From a virus (lineage: Duplodnaviria; Heunggongvirae; Uroviricota; Caudoviricetes): 20,639 bases of DNA. Below the pieces are notes generated by a model. It saw only the letters and a list, made by a program, of their open reading frames with translations. It had not been told where the DNA came from and did no database searches. Shown here one piece after another: positions 3,115-15,031 of this stretch (position 1 is its first letter; each line of letters opens with the position of its first letter). The stretch covers positions 1 to 20,639 of the IMG/VR virus record IMGVR_UViG_2713896773_000003. One strand, given 5' to 3'. Position numbers and translations under genes: made by a program.

Positions 3115-3752
3115 AATGCAAAGTTGAAGGTTGTGAGCGTGAATGCAAACACTACCCAGGAAAGGGTATCTGTCAAATGCACTACTTCCGAATGATGCGC
3201 TACGGGACCTACGAACTCACAAAAAATGGTAAAGGGAAATTCAGGCATAAAAATGCGAAGGGATATCAAATGCTCAAAATTCCTGATCATCCACTATCAA
3301 TGGCGAATGGCTGCGTTTATGAGCACCGAAAAGTTGTTTACGACCGCTATGGAGAAACACTTCCACCATGCGAAAAATGCGGCAAGAAGGTCACATGGAA
3401 AACCGCGCATATTGATCACATTGATGAGGTTGTTGATAACAATGCGGACTCAAATCTTAGGGTGCTTTGCCGAGCGTGTAATGTCATGCGATCTCGAGTG
3501 CATATCCCTGAGCACACAAAAAAAGGACGCACAGCCATAACTTTCAATGGCGAAACGAAAACCGCCACAGAATGGTCAAGGGACCATCGCGTTTCAGTAT
3601 CAGAAACATCCATCAAGCGTCGACTAAAAAATGGAATGAATGTAGAGGATGCGCTTTTTTCTCCCAAAGTAACCCACAGGCATACCAGGCCAAGAGGAAG
3701 AACACCTCTGTATGGTGAATATCGCGGACCAAAGCAGAAGGAGTCAGCATGA
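3111..3752 (+). CDS. HNH homing-type endonuclease with an N-terminal Cys/His cluster and a C-terminal DNA-binding-like region
   Basis: ATG overlaps the ninG stop (ATGA). Cys/His cluster CERECKHY...CQMHY. HNH core EHRKVVYDRYGETLPPCEKCGKKVTWKTAHIDHIDEVVDNNADSNLRVLCRACN (His, Asn, His with flanking CxxC pairs). Codon and base composition are visibly more AT-rich than the flanking nin genes. Confidence 0.8.
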   Translation: MKCKVEGCERECKHYPGKGICQMHYFRMMRYGTYELTKNGKGKFRHKNAKGYQMLKIPDHPLSMANGCVYEHRKVVYDRYGETLPPCEKCGKKVTWKTAHIDHIDEVVDNNADSNLRVLCRACNVMRSRVHIPEHTKKGRTAITFNGETKTATEWSRDHRVSVSETSIKRRLKNGMNVEDALFSPKVTHRHTRPRGRTPLYGEYRGPKQKESA

Positions 3753-3865
3753 ACCACACCGACTTCCTCCGGTACCAGGCCGAAAGCGTTAAGCGCGCCT
3801 ACCTGCCGCCAGTAGCAAAGCACAGCCAGACCAAAACCCACCAGCCACAGAAGGAAGCCGCATAA
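3749..3865 (+). CDS. Possible very small ORF (38 aa) coupled between the HNH gene and the Q-like gene
   Basis: ATG 3749 overlaps the HNH stop (ATGA); its stop TAA 3863-3865 overlaps ATG 3865 of the next gene (TAATG). No motif recognised. The overlaps suggest translational coupling, but such a short ORF could be chance. Confidence 0.3.
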   Translation: MNHTDFLRYQAESVKRAYLPPVAKHSQTKTHQPQKEAA

Positions 3866-4674
3866 TGAACCTCGAATCAATCGCTAAATACTTTGCGCCT
3901 AAATCACCGATGTTCAGTGACTCTCCTCGCGCAACCGCATCAGACAGTCTCACCGGCACTGACGTTATGGCGGCGCTTGGCCTTGCTGGCCACAAGTGCG
4001 GGTTTGGTTTCGATCTTTACCTCTCGAAAATCGGCATTAGCAGCCCAGATATAGCACTGGAGAGACTCTATGAGCAGGCACGTAAGTTATCAGGTAAATT
4101 CAGAGCACTGTCTGAACTCGATGAATCAGCTCGGTCAGGCGTGCTTAAGGTTCTCTGCGCTTTTGCATACCAGGATTATTCAAGAAGTGCTGCCAGCACT
4201 CGAAAATGTGATTGCTGTGATGGTGGCGGATTTACAGAGGCGCAAGTGTTTACCAACAAGGTCTCATACCCATGGGGGAAACCGCCTTACTGGTCGAAAA
4301 TGTCGCGTGCCGTTCGCCCAAGCGACTGGGAGAGCTGGACACAGGCGCGTGAGGTGGTGCGAGTTAAGTGCAAGCCGTGTAACGGAAAAGGCGTTATCAG
4401 CAATTCGTGTCGCTGCCATGGCAAAGGTAAGGTGCTGGACAAGGCAGAAAGCGATCGCCAGGGCGTTCCAGTAATGAAAGCCTGCGACCGCTGCGGTGGT
4501 AGAGGTTACGCCAGGCTTAAGTTCTCAACGGTAATTGAGGGCGTTAATACTGTTGCGGAGATAAAGAAAACGGCGGCATATGAGCAACTTCAGCCGCTAT
4601 TTGAGGAGTTGGTCGCCGAATGCCATAAACAGGAGTCTATGGCTGATTCCATTCTCTCAAAAGTAACGAGATGA
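3865..4674 (+). CDS. Putative late-gene antitermination protein Q-like, with four CxxCxGxG zinc-finger-like repeats
   Basis: Last gene before a long non-coding region containing promoter and terminators and the lysis cassette, which is the canonical Q position. Repeats CDCCDGGG, CKPCNGKG, CRCHGKG and CDRCGGRG suggest zinc binding. Family assignment is by position and from memory that some Q-type antiterminators are zinc-binding. Confidence 0.55.
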   Translation: MNLESIAKYFAPKSPMFSDSPRATASDSLTGTDVMAALGLAGHKCGFGFDLYLSKIGISSPDIALERLYEQARKLSGKFRALSELDESARSGVLKVLCAFAYQDYSRSAASTRKCDCCDGGGFTEAQVFTNKVSYPWGKPPYWSKMSRAVRPSDWESWTQAREVVRVKCKPCNGKGVISNSCRCHGKGKVLDKAESDRQGVPVMKACDRCGGRGYARLKFSTVIEGVNTVAEIKKTAAYEQLQPLFEELVAECHKQESMADSILSKVTR

Positions 4675-5849: not shown

Positions 5850-6310
5850 GCCGATTAACCGCAATCATCTGCGCTGTCGTTATCTGCCTGCTGGTTTCCA
5901 TGGCCTGGGCCATTAACCACTACCGCGACAACGCCATCACCTACAAAGACCAGCGCGATAAAGCCACAAAGAACCTCCGCCTGGCTAATGCCACCATCAA
6001 AGATATGCAGACCCGCCAGCGTGATGTCGCTGCACTGGATGCCAAATACACGAAGGAATTGTCCGATGCGAAAAAGACCATTAACGATTTGCGTCGTGAT
6101 GTCGATTCTGGCGCTAAACGGCTGCGCATCGCCGCAACCTGCCCTGGAGTGCCAAAAGCCACCTCCTCCACCGGCGTGGATGATGCAGGAGCCCCCGAAC
6201 TTACTCCAGACGCTCGACGGAATTATTTCGATCACCGGGACGGAATCGCAACCGCTGACAAAATGATTCGCGGCATGCAGGACTACATCAAAGAGCAGTG
6301 TCTTAAGTGA
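5846..6310 (+). CDS. Rz: Rz i-spanin (inner-membrane spanin subunit)
   Basis: ATG 5846 overlaps the endolysin stop (ATGA); the track start at 5834 is an upstream GTG. N-terminal TM helix [20 protein letters not shown] followed by a charged coiled-coil periplasmic domain. Rz1 is embedded in the +1 frame. Confidence 0.8.
6066..6266 (+). CDS. Rz1: Rz1 o-spanin (outer-membrane lipoprotein), fully embedded in Rz in another frame
   Basis: Within track ORF 5988..6266. ATG 6066 is preceded by AAGGAA. Signal peptide with lipobox LALNGC, then the proline-rich stretch [14 protein letters not shown], nearly identical to the lambda Rz1 motif [14 protein letters not shown] as I recall it. 66 aa. Confidence 0.8.
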
Positions 6311-6329
6311 TTCGTCACCCAAATAACAG

Positions 6330-6354
6330 AGCCTGACTTCGGTCGGGCTTTTTT
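6330..6354 (+). terminator. Rho-independent terminator after the lysis cassette
   Basis: Stem AGCCTGAC (6330-6337) / GTCGGGCT (6342-6349): 8 bp with one G-U pair, UUCG tetraloop, T-run 6349-6354, 20 bp after the Rz stop. Confidence 0.65.
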
Positions 6355-6381
6355 ATTCCCAGAAGAAGCAGGAGAAGAAGC

Positions 6382-6582
6382 ATGTTAACAGTAAAAGTAA
6401 TGTCGCCAGGTGGCGGTGAAGAGATTCATTGCGGGTTGAGTGTAGGGTTCAATCCGGGGCAGCAGAGCATCGCGGTATCGGGAATGGACAAAAATGTATT
6501 CCTGAAACCTGGCGAGGTCGCCTACGTGATGAACCAGAACGGGAAGACGGTATCTCGTTACGAGCATAATGACCGCCAGTAG
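6382..6582 (+). CDS. Hypothetical small protein (66 aa), function unknown
   Basis: GGAG (6371-6374) 7 nt before ATG 6382, in a purine-rich leader. Glycine-rich, probably beta-rich small protein; no motif recognised. First gene of a three-gene set between the lysis terminator and the terminase. Confidence 0.55.
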   Translation: MLTVKVMSPGGGEEIHCGLSVGFNPGQQSIAVSGMDKNVFLKPGEVAYVMNQNGKTVSRYEHNDRQ

Positions 6583-6681
6583 CCATTCCAAAGCTCACCT
6601 GCTGGTGGGCTTGATAATGGATATCCCCCTGAGCGGATAAATCAAAAATAACCCCTGCAACGGATAATGACGGAGCAACAG

Positions 6682-7053
6682 ATGGCAAAAGCCAAATGGC
6701 ACAAACTCCCGGCGTTCACCATTCCGCTGTTTCAAAGTGCACACGTCTACCTCGCAACAACCAGAGAACAGTTTCAGCACGCTGATAAATTCCTTGGCGG
6801 CAGCGGGGATGAGAAGCCATTCAATCTTGGGATTGCAAGCAACTATGAAAACACTGATACGGGAGAGCGAGTTTACCTGATTGGAGTATTCGATCAGCAG
6901 ATATCAACTCTCGTTCACGAATGCGCTCACGTATGTTTTTACGTCTGCTCTGATGTGGGCGTAACGACCAATCCGGAAGACGCAAACGAAACCTACTGCT
7001 ATCTGCTCGACAGAATGTTTTCGGCATTTTTGCCGTATATAAAACAGGATTAA
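6682..7053 (+). CDS. Hypothetical protein with HExxH motif (HECAH), possible small zinc-metallopeptidase-like protein
   Basis: Track ORF 6667..7053. ATG 6682 has GGAG (6672-6675) at 6-nt spacing, whereas ATG 6667 lacks a spaced RBS. Motif TLVHECAHV with a Glu about 19 residues downstream (PEDANE), a gluzincin-like arrangement. Only a 3-nt gap to the next gene. Confidence 0.55.
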   Translation: MAKAKWHKLPAFTIPLFQSAHVYLATTREQFQHADKFLGGSGDEKPFNLGIASNYENTDTGERVYLIGVFDQQISTLVHECAHVCFYVCSDVGVTTNPEDANETYCYLLDRMFSAFLPYIKQD

Positions 7054-7056
7054 CTC

Positions 7057-7695
7057 ATGGTGAACGAAGACGAGCGCAGGCCACTTCCACCAGTTAATTT
7101 CATTGGCCCTGATAACTGGCAGCCCTACACCAGATTGATTCCCGCCAATGAAGTGCATGACTGGATAAGCCATCAAATCCTCAGCGATAGCGGAAGCATC
7201 CATAACCCAGACCACGCCCATTTAATGGAAGCTGATTTGTGTTTTATGTGGGCTTCTGACTCATTCGCGAAGAAAGGGCGCTACGTTCTCGGACAGGCCG
7301 AACAGGTAATGCTCCGCGCAGGTGGTTGGCAGAAAGCCAGAATGGAACAGCAGATGTATGAATGGTTCGGGCGCATCCCGAAGTTCATCATCACGCTGGC
7401 AGCCGACTACTGCTCACAATGCAGCGACCTTGAATTCTGCGCCCTGGTAGAGCATGAGCTTTACCACATTGCCCAGGCCACCGATGATTTCGGCGCACCT
7501 AAGTTCAACAAAGAGACCGGGCAGCCAGTTCTCACATTGCGCGGCCACGACGTCGAAGAATTTGTCGGTGTTGTGCGTAGATACGGGGCGAGCACTGAAG
7601 TGCAAGAACTGGTGGACGCAGCCAATCAACCTGCAGAGGTGGCAAAACTTAACATCGCCAGAGCGTGCGGGACGTGCATGCTGAGACTGGCGTGA
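7057..7695 (+). CDS. Putative phage metallopeptidase-domain protein (HExxH motif HELYH, SprT-like or phage metallopeptidase-like)
   Basis: CAGGA RBS 7 nt upstream; coupled to the previous gene. Motif CALVEHELYHIAQATDDFG with Glu about 20 residues after, plus cysteine pairs CSQCSDLEFC and CGTC. Family identity is from memory. Confidence 0.6.
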   Translation: MVNEDERRPLPPVNFIGPDNWQPYTRLIPANEVHDWISHQILSDSGSIHNPDHAHLMEADLCFMWASDSFAKKGRYVLGQAEQVMLRAGGWQKARMEQQMYEWFGRIPKFIITLAADYCSQCSDLEFCALVEHELYHIAQATDDFGAPKFNKETGQPVLTLRGHDVEEFVGVVRRYGASTEVQELVDAANQPAEVAKLNIARACGTCMLRLA

Positions 7696-7726
7696 ATTTT
7701 TGACTGATTATGACAGGCGGTAAGCG

Positions 7727-8215
7727 ATGGCTGCATTAAAGGGAGAGGTGAAAGCGTTTATCGTTCAATCGCTTGCATGCTTCGACACGCCGTCGCAAGT
7801 GGTCGATGCCGTCAAAAAAGAATTTGGCATCACGATCCCCCGTCAGCAGGTTGAATCTCACGACCCGACGAAAGCAAACGGCAAAGGTCTGGCGAAAAAA
7901 TGGGTCGAGATGTTCAACGAAACCCGCGAGCGCTTCCAGACGGAAATTGCAGAAATCCCGATCGCTAATAAGGCTTATCGGCTTCGCGTACTGCAACGAA
8001 TGTCTGTGACCGCAGAGAACATGAAAAACCTCGGCATGACAGCTCAGCTTCTCGAACAGGCAGCAAAAGAAGTTGGGGATGTCTACACCAACAAACAGAA
8101 GGTTGAGCAAAGCGTTGTTGCCACCCATAACGTTATGCCGGTCCCGTCCTGCGATAACGTCGACGACTGGGAAGCAGCAGCACAGAAACAGCAGAGCGAG
8201 GTTCTTGGTGGATGA
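7727..8215 (+). CDS. Putative terminase small subunit
   Basis: A 162-aa gene immediately upstream of, and overlapping (ATGA), the terminase large subunit. The N-terminus MAALKGEVKAFIVQSLACFDTPSQVV resembles small-subunit proteins of enterobacterial phages as I recall them. Assignment is mainly positional. Confidence 0.65.
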   Translation: MAALKGEVKAFIVQSLACFDTPSQVVDAVKKEFGITIPRQQVESHDPTKANGKGLAKKWVEMFNETRERFQTEIAEIPIANKAYRLRVLQRMSVTAENMKNLGMTAQLLEQAAKEVGDVYTNKQKVEQSVVATHNVMPVPSCDNVDDWEAAAQKQQSEVLGG

Positions 8216-9783
8216 ATTACAAAGCCGTCTGGAAACCTTTGCCGGGATCGCAATCGCTCTCCCTGAGTTGCCCGTGTAACGAAATCCTCTACGAAGGTAC
8301 GCGAGGCCCCGGTAAAACCGCCGCGCAACTGGCGCGCTTTCGTCGCCTGGTTGGTCTGGGCTATGGCTCGTTCTGGCGTGGCGTCATTTTCGATACCGAG
8401 TATAAGAACCTCACCGATATCATTACCCAGTCAAAGCGCATGTATCGCCTGTTTAACGACGGCGCACGCTATCTGGCGTCAGCATCTGAACTGCGCTGGG
8501 TGTGGCCGACTGGAGAGGAGCTGCTGTTCCGCTTCGGGAAAGAAGAGGGTGACTACTGGGACTATCACGGCCAGGAGTTTCCGTTCATCGGCTTTAACGA
8601 GCTGACCAAGCAGCAGTCCCCTGAATTCTACGAGATGATGTTCTCTTGCCGGCGCTCCTCGTTCCGGCCTGAGAATTACCCGCTGGGTGACGGTTCGTTA
8701 CTTAAGCCTATTCCCCTGGAGACGTTCAGCACCACTAACCCGTTTGGCATCGGCCACACCTGGGTGAAGAAACGCTTCATCGAGCCAGCGCCCCGCGGCA
8801 CCATCATTCGTGAAACGCAGCAGGTGTTTAACCCGCAAACTGAGCGCGAAGAGGATGTGACGCTGACGCGCGTGGCTATTCACGGCTCGTTCAAAGAGAA
8901 CCCGTATCTGGATCCCCAGTACATCGCAACGCTGATGGCCATCAAAGACCCGAACCGCCGCAAAGCTTGGGTAGAGGGCTCCTGGGATGTCACCAGCGGT
9001 GGGCGCTTTGACCACCTGTGGAATGCATCGCTGCACGTCATTAAGCCGTTCCGCATCCCGGATAGCTGGACGGTTGACCGTTCCCATGACTGGGGTGAGT
9101 CGAAGCCGTTCTCTAACCTCTGGTGGGCGCGAGCCGACGGTACTGCCGCAGAACTGCCTGATGGTCGCCAGTTCTGCCCGCCTGCCGGGTCGCTGATCCT
9201 GATTGGCGAGTGGTATGGCTGTCCACCTGACGAGCTGAACAAAGGGCTCAATATGAGCTCGACAAACGTCGCCAAGGGTGTGGCCTGGATTGATAAGCGG
9301 CTGATGGGCGAAGAGCTGCCTGAACCTGAAGAGATAAAACTCAATGGGATAACTCAGGGGCAACTGAACATCATGCCCGGTATCTGCAAAAAGGTTGTGC
9401 CGGGCCCAGCTGACGGTGCCATCTACAACACTGGCGATGACGAGCTCTCTATTGCCCAGAAGATGGAATCGCAGGGCGTTAAGTGGGTTCCATCCAACAA
9501 GAAACCGGGATCGCGCGTAAACGGAGCGGCCCTCTTTGCTGACATGCTGGAGGCCGTCCTTGAGGGTAAGAAGCTGGAATCTGGTGTACCTGAGAAACCA
9601 GCATTCTACGTCTTCGACTATTGCCGCGGCTGGATAAGCCGTGTTCCGGTGCTCGTTCGCGACAGTAAGAACCCTGATGACGTAGACACTCAGCAGGAAG
9701 ATCACGACTGGGATGGCACTAGATATGCCGTCCTGCATTCACCGCCGAAGAAAGTCGGCAAAGTCACCAACCTACGGATCTAA
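8212..9783 (+). CDS. Terminase large subunit (ATPase plus nuclease)
   Basis: Walker A-like YEGTRGPGKT near the N-terminus, 523 aa, directly upstream of the portal gene. The first about 25 residues (SQSLSLSCPC) are low-complexity, so the true start could be an internal non-ATG codon. The 346-aa antisense ORF 8698..9738 is rejected. Confidence 0.9.
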   Translation: MNYKAVWKPLPGSQSLSLSCPCNEILYEGTRGPGKTAAQLARFRRLVGLGYGSFWRGVIFDTEYKNLTDIITQSKRMYRLFNDGARYLASASELRWVWPTGEELLFRFGKEEGDYWDYHGQEFPFIGFNELTKQQSPEFYEMMFSCRRSSFRPENYPLGDGSLLKPIPLETFSTTNPFGIGHTWVKKRFIEPAPRGTIIRETQQVFNPQTEREEDVTLTRVAIHGSFKENPYLDPQYIATLMAIKDPNRRKAWVEGSWDVTSGGRFDHLWNASLHVIKPFRIPDSWTVDRSHDWGESKPFSNLWWARADGTAAELPDGRQFCPPAGSLILIGEWYGCPPDELNKGLNMSSTNVAKGVAWIDKRLMGEELPEPEEIKLNGITQGQLNIMPGICKKVVPGPADGAIYNTGDDELSIAQKMESQGVKWVPSNKKPGSRVNGAALFADMLEAVLEGKKLESGVPEKPAFYVFDYCRGWISRVPVLVRDSKNPDDVDTQQEDHDWDGTRYAVLHSPPKKVGKVTNLRI

Positions 9784-13121: not shown

Positions 13122-13874
13122 ATGAAACTGAAACTTGATGCTAACGGAAATGTGGTCGTTGAAAACGGTATGCCTGTGTACATCCATGATGATGGCAAAG
13201 AAATCCCGTTCGACGCAGCCGCAGCGATGACCAAAATCACCTCCCTGAATGGTGAAGCTAAAACTCACCGTGAAGCGAAGGAGGCGGCGGAAGCCAGTCT
13301 CGCGAAATTCTCTGGCATCACCGATCCGACCAAGGCGCTCGAAGCCCTGGAGATGATGACCAAAATCGACCAGAAAAAACTGATCGACGCTGGCGCTGTT
13401 GACCAGGTTAAGGCTGAGATTACCAAGGTATTCCAGCAGCAGCTGGATGAAGCGAACGGCAAGACCAAACAGCTCGAAAGCCAGCTCTACGACGAGATGA
13501 TCGGCGGGCGCTTCGGTGGCTCCAAATTCATTTCAGAGAAGATGGCGATCCCGGCTGAGTTCGTGCGTTCCCACTTCGGTCAGAACTTCAAAATCGAAGA
13601 CGGCAAAGTCGTGGCGTACGACGGGCAGGGCAACAAGGTGTTCTCTCGCACCAAGCCAGGCGAGTTAGCCAGCTTTGATGAGGCCCTGGAGTCTCTGGTC
13701 GAGTCGCATCCGCAGAAAGATTACATCCTCAAAGCGTCCGGTAACAGCGGCGGCGGTTCTCACCAGTCGCAGCACCAGGCCGGGCAAAAAACCATGAAAC
13801 GCGATGCGTTTGATTCCCTGGATAACGCTGGCAAGCAAGCAGCGCTGAAAGACGGCGTCAGCATCGTCGATTAA
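13122..13874 (+). CDS. Putative scaffolding protein
   Basis: A 250-aa acidic, alpha-helical-looking protein (runs of A, E, K, Q) directly upstream of the major capsid gene; GGAG about 9 nt upstream of the ATG. Confidence 0.6.
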   Translation: MKLKLDANGNVVVENGMPVYIHDDGKEIPFDAAAAMTKITSLNGEAKTHREAKEAAEASLAKFSGITDPTKALEALEMMTKIDQKKLIDAGAVDQVKAEITKVFQQQLDEANGKTKQLESQLYDEMIGGRFGGSKFISEKMAIPAEFVRSHFGQNFKIEDGKVVAYDGQGNKVFSRTKPGELASFDEALESLVESHPQKDYILKASGNSGGGSHQSQHQAGQKTMKRDAFDSLDNAGKQAALKDGVSIVD

Positions 13875-13891
13875 ATCGAAAGGAGCCATAA

Positions 13892-15031
13892 ATGGCAGGC
13901 AATACCCTTACTGGTCTGATCCCGACCATCTATACCGCGCTGTACGTAGTGTCCCGCGAGCAAACTGGTTTTATTCCTGCGGTGGCGCGTGACGCGAAAG
14001 CGGATGCTGCTGCAAAAGACCAGACCGTACGTGCGCCAGTCGCACCTGCAGCCACCACTGAAGATATTGTCCCTGGACCTTCAGCGCCTAATTCTGGCGA
14101 CCAGACCATCGGTGGTGTGGATGTCAAAATCACCAAATCCAAAATGGCCCCGGTGAAATGGAATGGTGAAGAGCAATTGGCTCTGGGCCCGGCTGGTACC
14201 TACAACACCATCCTGGCTGACCAGTTCAAGCAGGCTTTCCGTGCGCTGGCGAACGAAGTGGATGCGGATCTCGCTGCGCTGTACCTCAACTCCTCCCGCG
14301 CTGTTGGCGCGCCAAAGAATACCCCGTTCAGCATCAAAGACGATCTGACTGATGCTGCGTTGGCGCGTCAAATCCTGACCGATAACGGTGCGCCGACTAC
14401 TGATTTGCGTATGGTGCTGGGTGGCGAAGCGATGGCATCCATCCGTGGTAAACAGGCTGTACTCTTCAAAGCGAACGAAGCGGGAACCGACCAACTGCTG
14501 CGTGAAGGTGTTATCGGTCGCATCATGGGCTTCAACCTCCACGAATCCTTCAGCATCAAGCGTACCGCGAAAAGCGCTGCTGCTGGCTATAAGGTCAATG
14601 GCGCGAAGAAAGAGGGCGATATCATCATCGCTATCTCTGCTGGCACCGGCGGTATTGCTGCAGGTACTGCGGTGAAGTTCGCCGGTGATGACAATCAGTA
14701 TCTGGTCGTTGCGGCTACGTCTTCCACTATCACTATTAGCGCGCCGGGCCTCCGTCAGGATCTGGCAGACCAGGCTGATGTCACTGTGTTGAGCGAATTT
14801 GTACCGAACATGGCGTTTGACCGCGGGGCATTCCTGCTGGCCAGCCGTACCCCGGCGATGCCTGAAGGTGGCGATACTGCTGATGACGTCATGAATGTGA
14901 CCGACCCGGTATCTGGCATCACCTTCCAGGTGGCGCTGTACCGCCAGTACCGTCAGGTGCGTTATGAAGTGGGCCTGGCATGGGGTGTGGCTGCTGTGGC
15001 GCCACGTCATTCCGCCATCATCATGGGTTAA
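13892..15031 (+). CDS. Major capsid (coat) protein
   Basis: A 379-aa ORF with a strong RBS (AAAGGAG), immediately after the scaffold gene and followed by a terminator hairpin. Composition is typical of coat proteins. The 329-aa antisense ORF 14081..15070 is rejected. Confidence 0.8.
   Translation: MAGNTLTGLIPTIYTALYVVSREQTGFIPAVARDAKADAAAKDQTVRAPVAPAATTEDIVPGPSAPNSGDQTIGGVDVKITKSKMAPVKWNGEEQLALGPAGTYNTILADQFKQAFRALANEVDADLAALYLNSSRAVGAPKNTPFSIKDDLTDAALARQILTDNGAPTTDLRMVLGGEAMASIRGKQAVLFKANEAGTDQLLREGVIGRIMGFNLHESFSIKRTAKSAAAGYKVNGAKKEGDIIIAISAGTGGIAAGTAVKFAGDDNQYLVVAATSSTITISAPGLRQDLADQADVTVLSEFVPNMAFDRGAFLLASRTPAMPEGGDTADDVMNVTDPVSGITFQVALYRQYRQVRYEVGLAWGVAAVAPRHSAIIMG

Follow-up and report, generated by a model that had tools for sequence, protein, structure and literature searches.

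What two neighboring proteins with zincin-like HExxH motifs might do between the lysis and packaging genes of a phage is the question raised by a locus in the IMG/VR virus record IMGVR_UViG_2713896773_000003. We analyzed positions 1 to 20,639 of this record (hereafter the window, all 20,639 nucleotides), which belong to an Escherichia coli lambdoid prophage with 100% identity to a prophage of E. coli ABWA45 and to others in about ten further E. coli genomes. A sequence-only reading had described three tightly coupled genes past the Rz/Rz1 terminator, here called A, B and C, as a cassette containing two metallopeptidases that virion assembly would not need. All three open reading frames (ORFs) exist as described, as do their spacing and both HExxH motifs, and the coordinates were confirmed on the plus strand (Table 1). 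We found that the three genes are not inherited together, and that gene C instead forms a unit with the small-terminase gene that follows it.

We first consider the gene downstream of C. Its product contains a DUF2280 domain, and its C-terminal tail matches the small-terminase (TerS) family phrog_5334 and is homologous to the tail of a phrog_1206 small terminase standing before the same large terminase. On these sequence grounds it is the small-terminase gene. Of the loci chosen by C, 80 came from genomes of alpha-, beta- and gammaproteobacteria, and 78 of these had a DUF2280 ORF downstream of C on the same strand, in most cases after a gap of 34 nucleotides (nt) or less, and both exceptions had a truncated C. 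DUF2280 also lay directly past C in all 98 enterobacterial viral contigs with enough flank (19/19 and 79/79), bringing the sum over C-chosen loci to 176 of 178. The reverse count agreed, as every one of the 73 viral contigs chosen by DUF2280 had C upstream. Phage database records told a similar story: C occurred in 144 records and DUF2280 in 326, of which 181 were Salinibacter phages, and the remaining 145 had genus counts almost those of C (62 and 62 for Acinetobacter, 44 and 44 for Pseudomonas, 8 and 8 for Vibrio, 7 and 7 for Burkholderia). The order C, DUF2280, large terminase was seen in JBD44 (gp16-17-18), Acinetobacter Acba_13, Vibrio XM1, Burkholderia BgManors32 and Pectobacterium ZF40, and with one gene inserted in Rhizobium RHph_TM3_3_3. 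Beyond the pair, the genes past DUF2280 formed no fewer than three unrelated clusters with the size of a large terminase, and those before C formed 68 clusters on either strand, so the conserved unit starts at C. These counts show that C and the downstream DUF2280 small-terminase gene are a fixed two-gene unit in phages of Proteobacteria. The claim that nothing in virion assembly requires the genes of this region is probably wrong for C.

Two observations adjoin this result. A 374-aa protein joining C and DUF2280 (P0247) was considered as Rosetta-stone evidence and rejected, since its linker has Trp at inferred stop positions; the window's in-frame TGA stops imply stops there, and P0247 is probably a gene call made with a code that reads TGA as Trp. 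In Acinetobacter phages (e.g., Acba_13, L003 3562-4029), the gene ahead of the one for PF18894, the family to which C belongs, bears an HNH or putative endonuclease annotation and extends into the beginning of the PF18894 gene, the order being endonuclease, zincin, DUF2280, large terminase. The protein encoded by this overlapping gene, 155 aa long, had no Pfam match at E ≤ 0.01.

Close relatives of the window indicate which part of the packaging region accompanies C. In two of them (loci L010 and L032), homology to the window extends across B (6583-7060), is lost, and resumes at about codon 132 of the small-terminase gene, continuing through the large terminase and portal (window 8122 to ~12,290; 87-89% nt identity). 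The intervening block, which comprises C and the DUF2280 domain, is replaced by a phrog_1206 small-terminase N-terminal domain without C (5380-5932 in L010). The breakpoints fall at the start codon of C and at codon ~132 of the small-terminase gene. This exchange implies that C travels with what is predicted to be the DNA-recognition half of the small terminase, and not with the motor or the capsid. Since C is nearly always inherited with one small-terminase type, its distribution points to a role in DNA packaging.

Gene C is clearly, by its sequence, a member of a catalogued family. A comparison with phage metallopeptidase profiles, which the sequence-only reading had proposed as a check, gave a match to Pfam PF18894 ("Putative phage metallopeptidase") at 147 bits against a gathering threshold of 23.7, covering profile positions 2-134 of 134. 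The same profile matched all 78 diverse homologues in the alignment from which we counted conservation. C also matches PHROG 513. The family comprises more than 3,600 clusters at 90% identity and at least 769 clusters at 50% identity (E ≤ 1e-3), and C shares 43-88% identity with proteins from phages of Salmonella, Klebsiella, Pectobacterium, Pseudomonas, Vibrio, Burkholderia, Acinetobacter and Rhizobium. This is unusually strong conservation for a phage protein, and it spans proteobacterial classes. "Transposase" or "putative transposase" is a recurrent label of PF18894 proteins in PHROGs and in phage records (e.g., NC_018279, JQ177065, NC_028657). We found this label unsupported, as the evidence is instead a metallopeptidase family match and a zincin fold.

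Seven residues are invariant in the C alignment: H133, E134, H137, H164, G177, C204 and G205. H53, H55, D165 and E167 are near-invariant, and C207 is somewhat more variable (counts in Table 1). HExxH is thus conserved in the homologues of C, as it is in those of B, and the lack of conservation that might have spoken against a zincin assignment was not seen. Two details of the sequence-only reading fared differently for C. The Glu that it placed about 20 residues past HExxH, E153 in KETGQ, is Glu in only 8 of 78 homologues and falls in a gap in 35. Of its extra cysteine pairs, CSQC is poorly conserved (C119 in 18/78, C122 in 22/78), whereas the C-terminal pair flanking G205 withstood comparison. 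The H53-x-H55 motif is possibly a second metal site. We also observed that residue 138, directly past the motif, is Cys (HExxHC) in 48 of 78 PF18894 members and Ile in the window protein; this Cys may bear on metal binding or redox control across most of the family.

To examine the fold of C, an AlphaFold2 (AF2) model was built from the 78-member alignment, with a mean predicted local distance difference test score (pLDDT) of 93.5 and a predicted template modeling score (pTM) of 0.87. Low confidence was limited to the last dozen residues, which bear the invariant Cys-Gly; in 10-residue blocks from residue 201, mean pLDDT was 69 and 51. The model has a beta-sheet and an active-site helix carrying HExxH and resembles solved zincins, with scores of 7.7 against projannalysin, 6.8 against selecase, 6.7 against the Spartan SprT domain, 6.3 against BepA, 6.0 against proabylysin, 5.8 against the "zincin-like" structure 3e11, 5.7 against YbeY, and 5.5 against both BlaR1 and Wss1. 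We are confident that C, as modeled, has a zincin fold closest to the minigluzincins and SprT/Spartan. The third zinc ligand of minigluzincins is a histidine downstream of HExxH (PMC6925264). By this analogy and its invariance, H164 is a candidate third ligand in C. We infer a zinc peptidase of minigluzincin/SprT type that would hold zinc on H133, H137 and H164, with E134 as the catalytic base. The conserved C-terminal Cys-Gly is likewise a candidate cysteine switch or latency tail, and both latency and activation by DNA have precedent within this fold class (PMC4559962). Sequence searches of the Protein Data Bank (PDB) with B and C, as single sequences and as profiles, returned nothing meaningful, and NCBIfam gave nothing above noise.

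How might these observations fit together? The explanation that we favor, although tentatively and at somewhat less than an even chance, is that this stretch of the late operon, with the lysis cassette on one side and the packaging genes on the other, is a mosaic junction carrying three independent genes of which C encodes a zinc peptidase acting at packaging initiation with the DUF2280 small terminase. A, B and C would have come together by chance in mosaic recombination, with A and B as accessory genes in an insertion-tolerant site past the lysis terminator: A a small protein of a mainly T5-like family, and B a separate minimal HExxH...NE zinc peptidase. C would be kept latent by its invariant Cys-Gly tail until binding of DNA or of the small terminase possibly released it through a cysteine switch. 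It would then work with the predicted DNA-recognition domain of DUF2280 at the start of packaging, where it might process or turn over the small terminase or might clear proteins bound to DNA awaiting packaging. That a latent minigluzincin- or SprT-like C acts with the small terminase in this way lies, from sequence, model and analogy, between doubtful and tentatively credible. The broader proposition, that PF18894 is a dedicated cofactor of DUF2280-type small terminases and supplies a latent zincin protease for packaging initiation in a large group of temperate phages of Proteobacteria, we consider unlikely but worth stating.

Several points weigh against a packaging role for C. In L010 and L032 the same large terminase accompanies a different small terminase and no C, which means that C does not belong to the core motor. 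In Salinibacter phages DUF2280 occurs with no C and has a membrane protein upstream, and C is therefore not universally needed by this type of small terminase. Bordetella phage PHB04 has a distant, short PF18894 member with no adjoining terminase. Synteny alone cannot tell a partnership between proteins from a shared cis-acting site. The zinc-ligand and cysteine-switch assignments come only from conservation and analogy, and the tail was modeled at low confidence. Finally, our literature searches on PF18894, DUF2280, phage metallopeptidase and hkcC found no functional study, nor did we find an experiment on any member of the A, B or C families.

The Salinibacter lineage was the only one seen to break the pairing. 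In Salinibacter phage 2_3 (L169 2932-3980), where DUF2280 is preceded by the predicted membrane protein, the annotated DUF2280 start looks too far downstream, with the coding sequence beginning at 3576 and the tblastn alignment at 3501.

The proposal of a conserved A-B-C cassette was rejected by neighborhood counts in loci chosen by B and by C. C was the next gene past B in 19 of 80 viral contigs chosen by B. Looking upstream of C, we found B in 0 of 80 genome loci and 0 of 77 viral contigs with enough upstream flank. Gene A was present in 6 of the 80 B-chosen loci, 0 of the 80 C-chosen genome loci and 1 of the 77 C-chosen viral contigs, and L010, although otherwise homologous, lacks it. B and C were also rejected as paralogues, given an hhalign probability of 0.6% with nine aligned columns at HExxH. 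Overall, what endured of the first interpretation was the zincin-type character of the proteins, supported for C by PF18894 and a confident model and for B by motif and topology with weak fold matches, and what fell was the cassette.

Gene A had no Pfam family, and its match was phrog_3909. Most of its 253 matches in phage records came from virulent T5-like phages, which share 60-78% identity and have the gene in their tRNA-rich region, and one lambdoid phage, Fraca, has a homologue past Rz. Judging by these matches, A is a mobile small ORF and an independent accessory gene. A perfect tandem direct repeat, AGAAGAAGCA, occupies window 6361-6382 in two copies spaced 12 nt start to start; it sits past the lysis terminator, abuts gene A and runs into its start codon.

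Gene B had no Pfam family either, and its match, phrog_1365, has no annotated function. Its start at 6682 is the choice of the NCBI Prokaryotic Genome Annotation Pipeline (PGAP), and all 33 aligned homologues begin at the equivalent Met (32 with "MA" and one with "MP"), one having a called extension of 13 residues ahead of it. With this start, the gap between A and B is 99 nt. The homologue search returned 233 sequences, and the named ones among the 120 listed were all from Enterobacterales. H79, E80, H83, C89, D91, N102, E103, Y105, C106 and Y107 are invariant in the 33 sequences, which reach down to 48% identity. Here the expected Glu about 20 residues past HExxH did hold: E103 follows H83 by 20 residues and opens the next helix, as in gluzincins. 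The thermolysin pattern is HExxH-19-NExxSD, and E103, preceded by Asn, presumably takes the "NE" third-ligand position at thermolysin-type spacing.

The AF2 model of B (pLDDT 85, pTM 0.81) is arranged as strand-strand-helix-strand-strand-helix-helix, with HExxH on the first of the final two helices (74-91) and NE on the second (103-120). Its topology is, as modeled, that of a minimal zincin resembling minigluzincins. Foldseek found no significant match of this model in the PDB, and fold matches were weak. From motif and model, B is probably a small zinc peptidase. The remaining comparisons suggested earlier gave little. SprT-like PF10263 scored B at 13.6 bits over 20 residues against a threshold of 25.6, and matches to it were sub-threshold throughout, in 25 of 33 B members and 4 of 78 C members. 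Neither a match to the ImmA/IrrE (M78) family profile nor an adjacent helix-turn-helix repressor was found, nor was the ArdC arrangement of an N-terminal single-stranded DNA-binding domain with a C-terminal metalloprotease domain.

In the 80 viral contigs chosen by B, B was always past the lysis genes where these were detectable. When C did not follow, the next gene was a small terminase of phrog_51, 1206, 309 or 1482, or else head-decoration-like, Rha-like or small ORFs preceded a P22 gp3-type small terminase. B thus stands before at least five small-terminase types, and its varied neighbors, together with its absence upstream in C-chosen loci, mark it as a free-standing accessory gene of the late operon. 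Separately, we noticed that phage P22 has an intact 121-codon B homologue between sieA and orf59a/mnt, at 35% identity and with HECAH and NETYCY kept. This ORF (NC_002371.2 ~13861-14223, plus strand; L170 1362-1724) is unannotated in RefSeq, where only the sieA promoter and the mnt terminator are given at its position.

The distribution of A and B bears on the possibility that the locus is a host-directed, anti-defense or exclusion protease module, that is, a set of morons unrelated to virion production. Past the lysis terminator and ahead of the terminase, insertions vary, and related phages have Rha/KilA-N, decoration-like and small ORFs there. The distribution of B is patchy and includes a position beside sieA in the immI region of P22, partial B-like domains lie near the genome ends of N4-like phages, and A is also found in virulent T5-like phages, in their tRNA-rich region. 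However, A, B and C are not inherited together; C, moreover, is near-universal with DUF2280, locked in position and strongly conserved, unlike typical counter-defense genes. PADLOC defense models gave only chance-level matches (E 0.006-0.043), none of them significant. As an account of the whole locus we judge this doubtful, but for A and B alone an anti-defense or moron role is plausible. Together with a cis-acting site, it is the main alternative to a packaging peptidase, especially for A and B.

The cis-acting alternative supposes that the pac site recognized by the DUF2280 domain lies in or beside the C coding sequence, such that linkage is maintained in cis while the C protein does work unrelated to packaging. 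In P22 and SPP1 the pac site lies within the small-terminase gene or next to it, and the exchange unit consists of exactly C and the predicted DNA-recognition part of the small terminase. Across 90 unique enterobacterial sequences, the spacing between C and DUF2280 was constant at 30-32 nt and synonymous diversity was 0.37 for C, below the 0.45 of the small-terminase gene. After correction for amino-acid composition, this diversity dipped to 0.61-0.74 of expectation at C codons ~125-160. This dip is shallow and not decisive, and shared ancestry or recombination could produce it. Among DNA repeats in 6300-8400 we found only short two-copy matches, and no other DNA signature. The pairing also persists in alphaproteobacterial loci with 150-711 nt between C and DUF2280, and the predicted catalytic residues of C are invariant over deep divergence, which argues that the protein itself is under selection. 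For these reasons, we consider a purely cis-acting linkage rather unlikely.

Two further readings carry little weight: it is improbable that B, whose HExxH is invariant, is not an enzyme but a small adaptor or inhibitor protein with the motif as a structural or metal-binding relic, and slightly more so that C, a PF18894 member, is a metal-dependent nuclease or other nucleic-acid enzyme with a zincin-like fold (as YbeY) that helps to cut DNA at packaging initiation in the manner of the HNH partners of HK97-type terminases.

As shown in Table 1, the features discussed above lie close together in the window. The gaps are 3 nt between B and C and 31 nt between C and the DUF2280 gene, and the latter overlaps the large-terminase gene by 4 nt. 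The hairpin and T-run past Rz/Rz1 resemble an intrinsic terminator and would mark the end of the lysis cassette.

Table 1. Coordinates of features at the lysis-packaging junction; positions refer to the window, and fractions give homologues retaining a residue.
Feature	Position	Strand	Remarks
Terminator-like hairpin and T-run	6328-6351 (or to 6359)	+	10-bp stem, 4-nt loop; directly past Rz/Rz1
Gene A	6382-6582	+	66 aa; phrog_3909
Gene B	6682-7053	+	123 aa; phrog_1365, hkcC-like; upstream ATG at 6667 would give 128 aa
B HECAH (H79, E80, H83)	6916-6930	+	invariant, 33/33
B N102-E103	6985-6990	+	invariant; 20 residues past H83, start of next helix
Gene C	7057-7695	+	212 aa; PF18894
Exchange unit	7061-8121	+	C and N-terminal ~130 codons of DUF2280 gene; replaced in L010 and L032
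C H53-x-H55	7213-7221	+	near-invariant, 77/78 and 75/78
C HELYH (H133, E134, H137)	7453-7467	+	invariant, 78/78
C GHDVEEF	7543-7563	+	H164 78/78, D165 74/78, E167 77/78
C C204-G205-T-C207	7666-7677	+	78/78, 78/78, 69/78
DUF2280 gene (PF10045), small terminase	7727-8215	+	assigned by Pfam, position and C-terminal phrog_5334 TerS match
Large terminase	8212-9783	+	past DUF2280 gene

Six-frame translation of the whole window yielded two HExxH strings only, HECAH and HELYH, where 1.3 would be expected from composition. The count by itself is not significant, and the two motifs are set apart from chance because they are conserved in the homologues of B and C. Elsewhere in the window, PGAP genes on the ABWA45 prophage include replication protein P, ren, NinG and antiterminator Q, followed by holin, lysozyme, lysis protein (Rz), two hypotheticals, "putative metallopeptidase", DUF2280, terminase, portal and a P22-type capsid protein. 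The Q-type antiterminator (3865-4674) has a sub-threshold match to the DnaJ CXXCXGXG zinc finger (E 5e-5, 24 bits against a cut-off of 32.7). On the minus strand at ~13870-14610 (L001 16571-17311), a gene for a 246-aa hypothetical protein lies within the head-gene cluster, with a DUF6651 gene and the P22-type major capsid gene on either side, and looks like an inserted moron.

Gene C itself is ordinary, as it belongs to a catalogued family and the NCBI pipeline already names it "putative metallopeptidase". The useful new points are its near-obligate pairing with DUF2280 and the block exchange involving the predicted DNA-recognition domain of the small terminase; the fixed pairing was not described in the literature that we searched. 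PF18894 is widespread in phages of Enterobacterales, Pseudomonas, Acinetobacter, Burkholderia, Vibrio and Rhizobium, and its unit with the small terminase offers a concrete hypothesis for thousands of genes labeled "hypothetical" or mislabeled "transposase". Database labels are corrected by these results as well, and the P22 reference genome proves to have an hkcC-like ORF that lacks annotation. If a peptidase does act in packaging initiation, terminase accessory factors would include a new kind, with bearing on pac-site specificity, transduction by these prophages and phage engineering.

Comparison with known systems places B and C differently. B resembles hkcC of HK620 (35% identity) and ST64T orf-129, ST104 ORF47 and SE1 orf49 (59%), and the P22, HK620, ST64T and ST104 proteins, at 35-59% identity, have the same HExxH...NETYCY motifs. 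The ST64T homologue lies between the lysis genes and gene 3 (small terminase), while those of P22 and HK620 lie in the immI region, in the sieA-mnt interval, unlike gene B. C is a full-length, high-scoring member of PF18894 with HExxH kept, and sequence search found no solved structure for that family. Minigluzincins (projannalysin 4jix, proabylysin 4jiu, selecase 4qhf) and the related M48/M56 catalytic cores are among the systems nearest to C. About 90-95 of its residues align with the minigluzincins, but minigluzincins are single domains of ~100 residues and C has 212. Against the families of SprT/Spartan and Wss1 (WLM), C had no Pfam score at the gathering threshold, and their zinc-binding DNA subdomain and SHP/VIM and SIM motifs were not found in it. 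The closest parallel in genome organization is with the HNH endonuclease partners of HK97-type terminases (Kala et al. 2014), which reportedly came to notice through synteny and in later work proved necessary for packaging. In both cases the gene for a small metal-dependent enzyme (predicted to be so for C) is fixed beside the terminase across many phages, and C, if it acts as proposed, would be the protease-type counterpart of these nucleases. The two differ in fold and chemistry, and also in partner: HNH proteins go with the large terminase and portal, whereas C goes with the predicted DNA-recognition domain of the small terminase.

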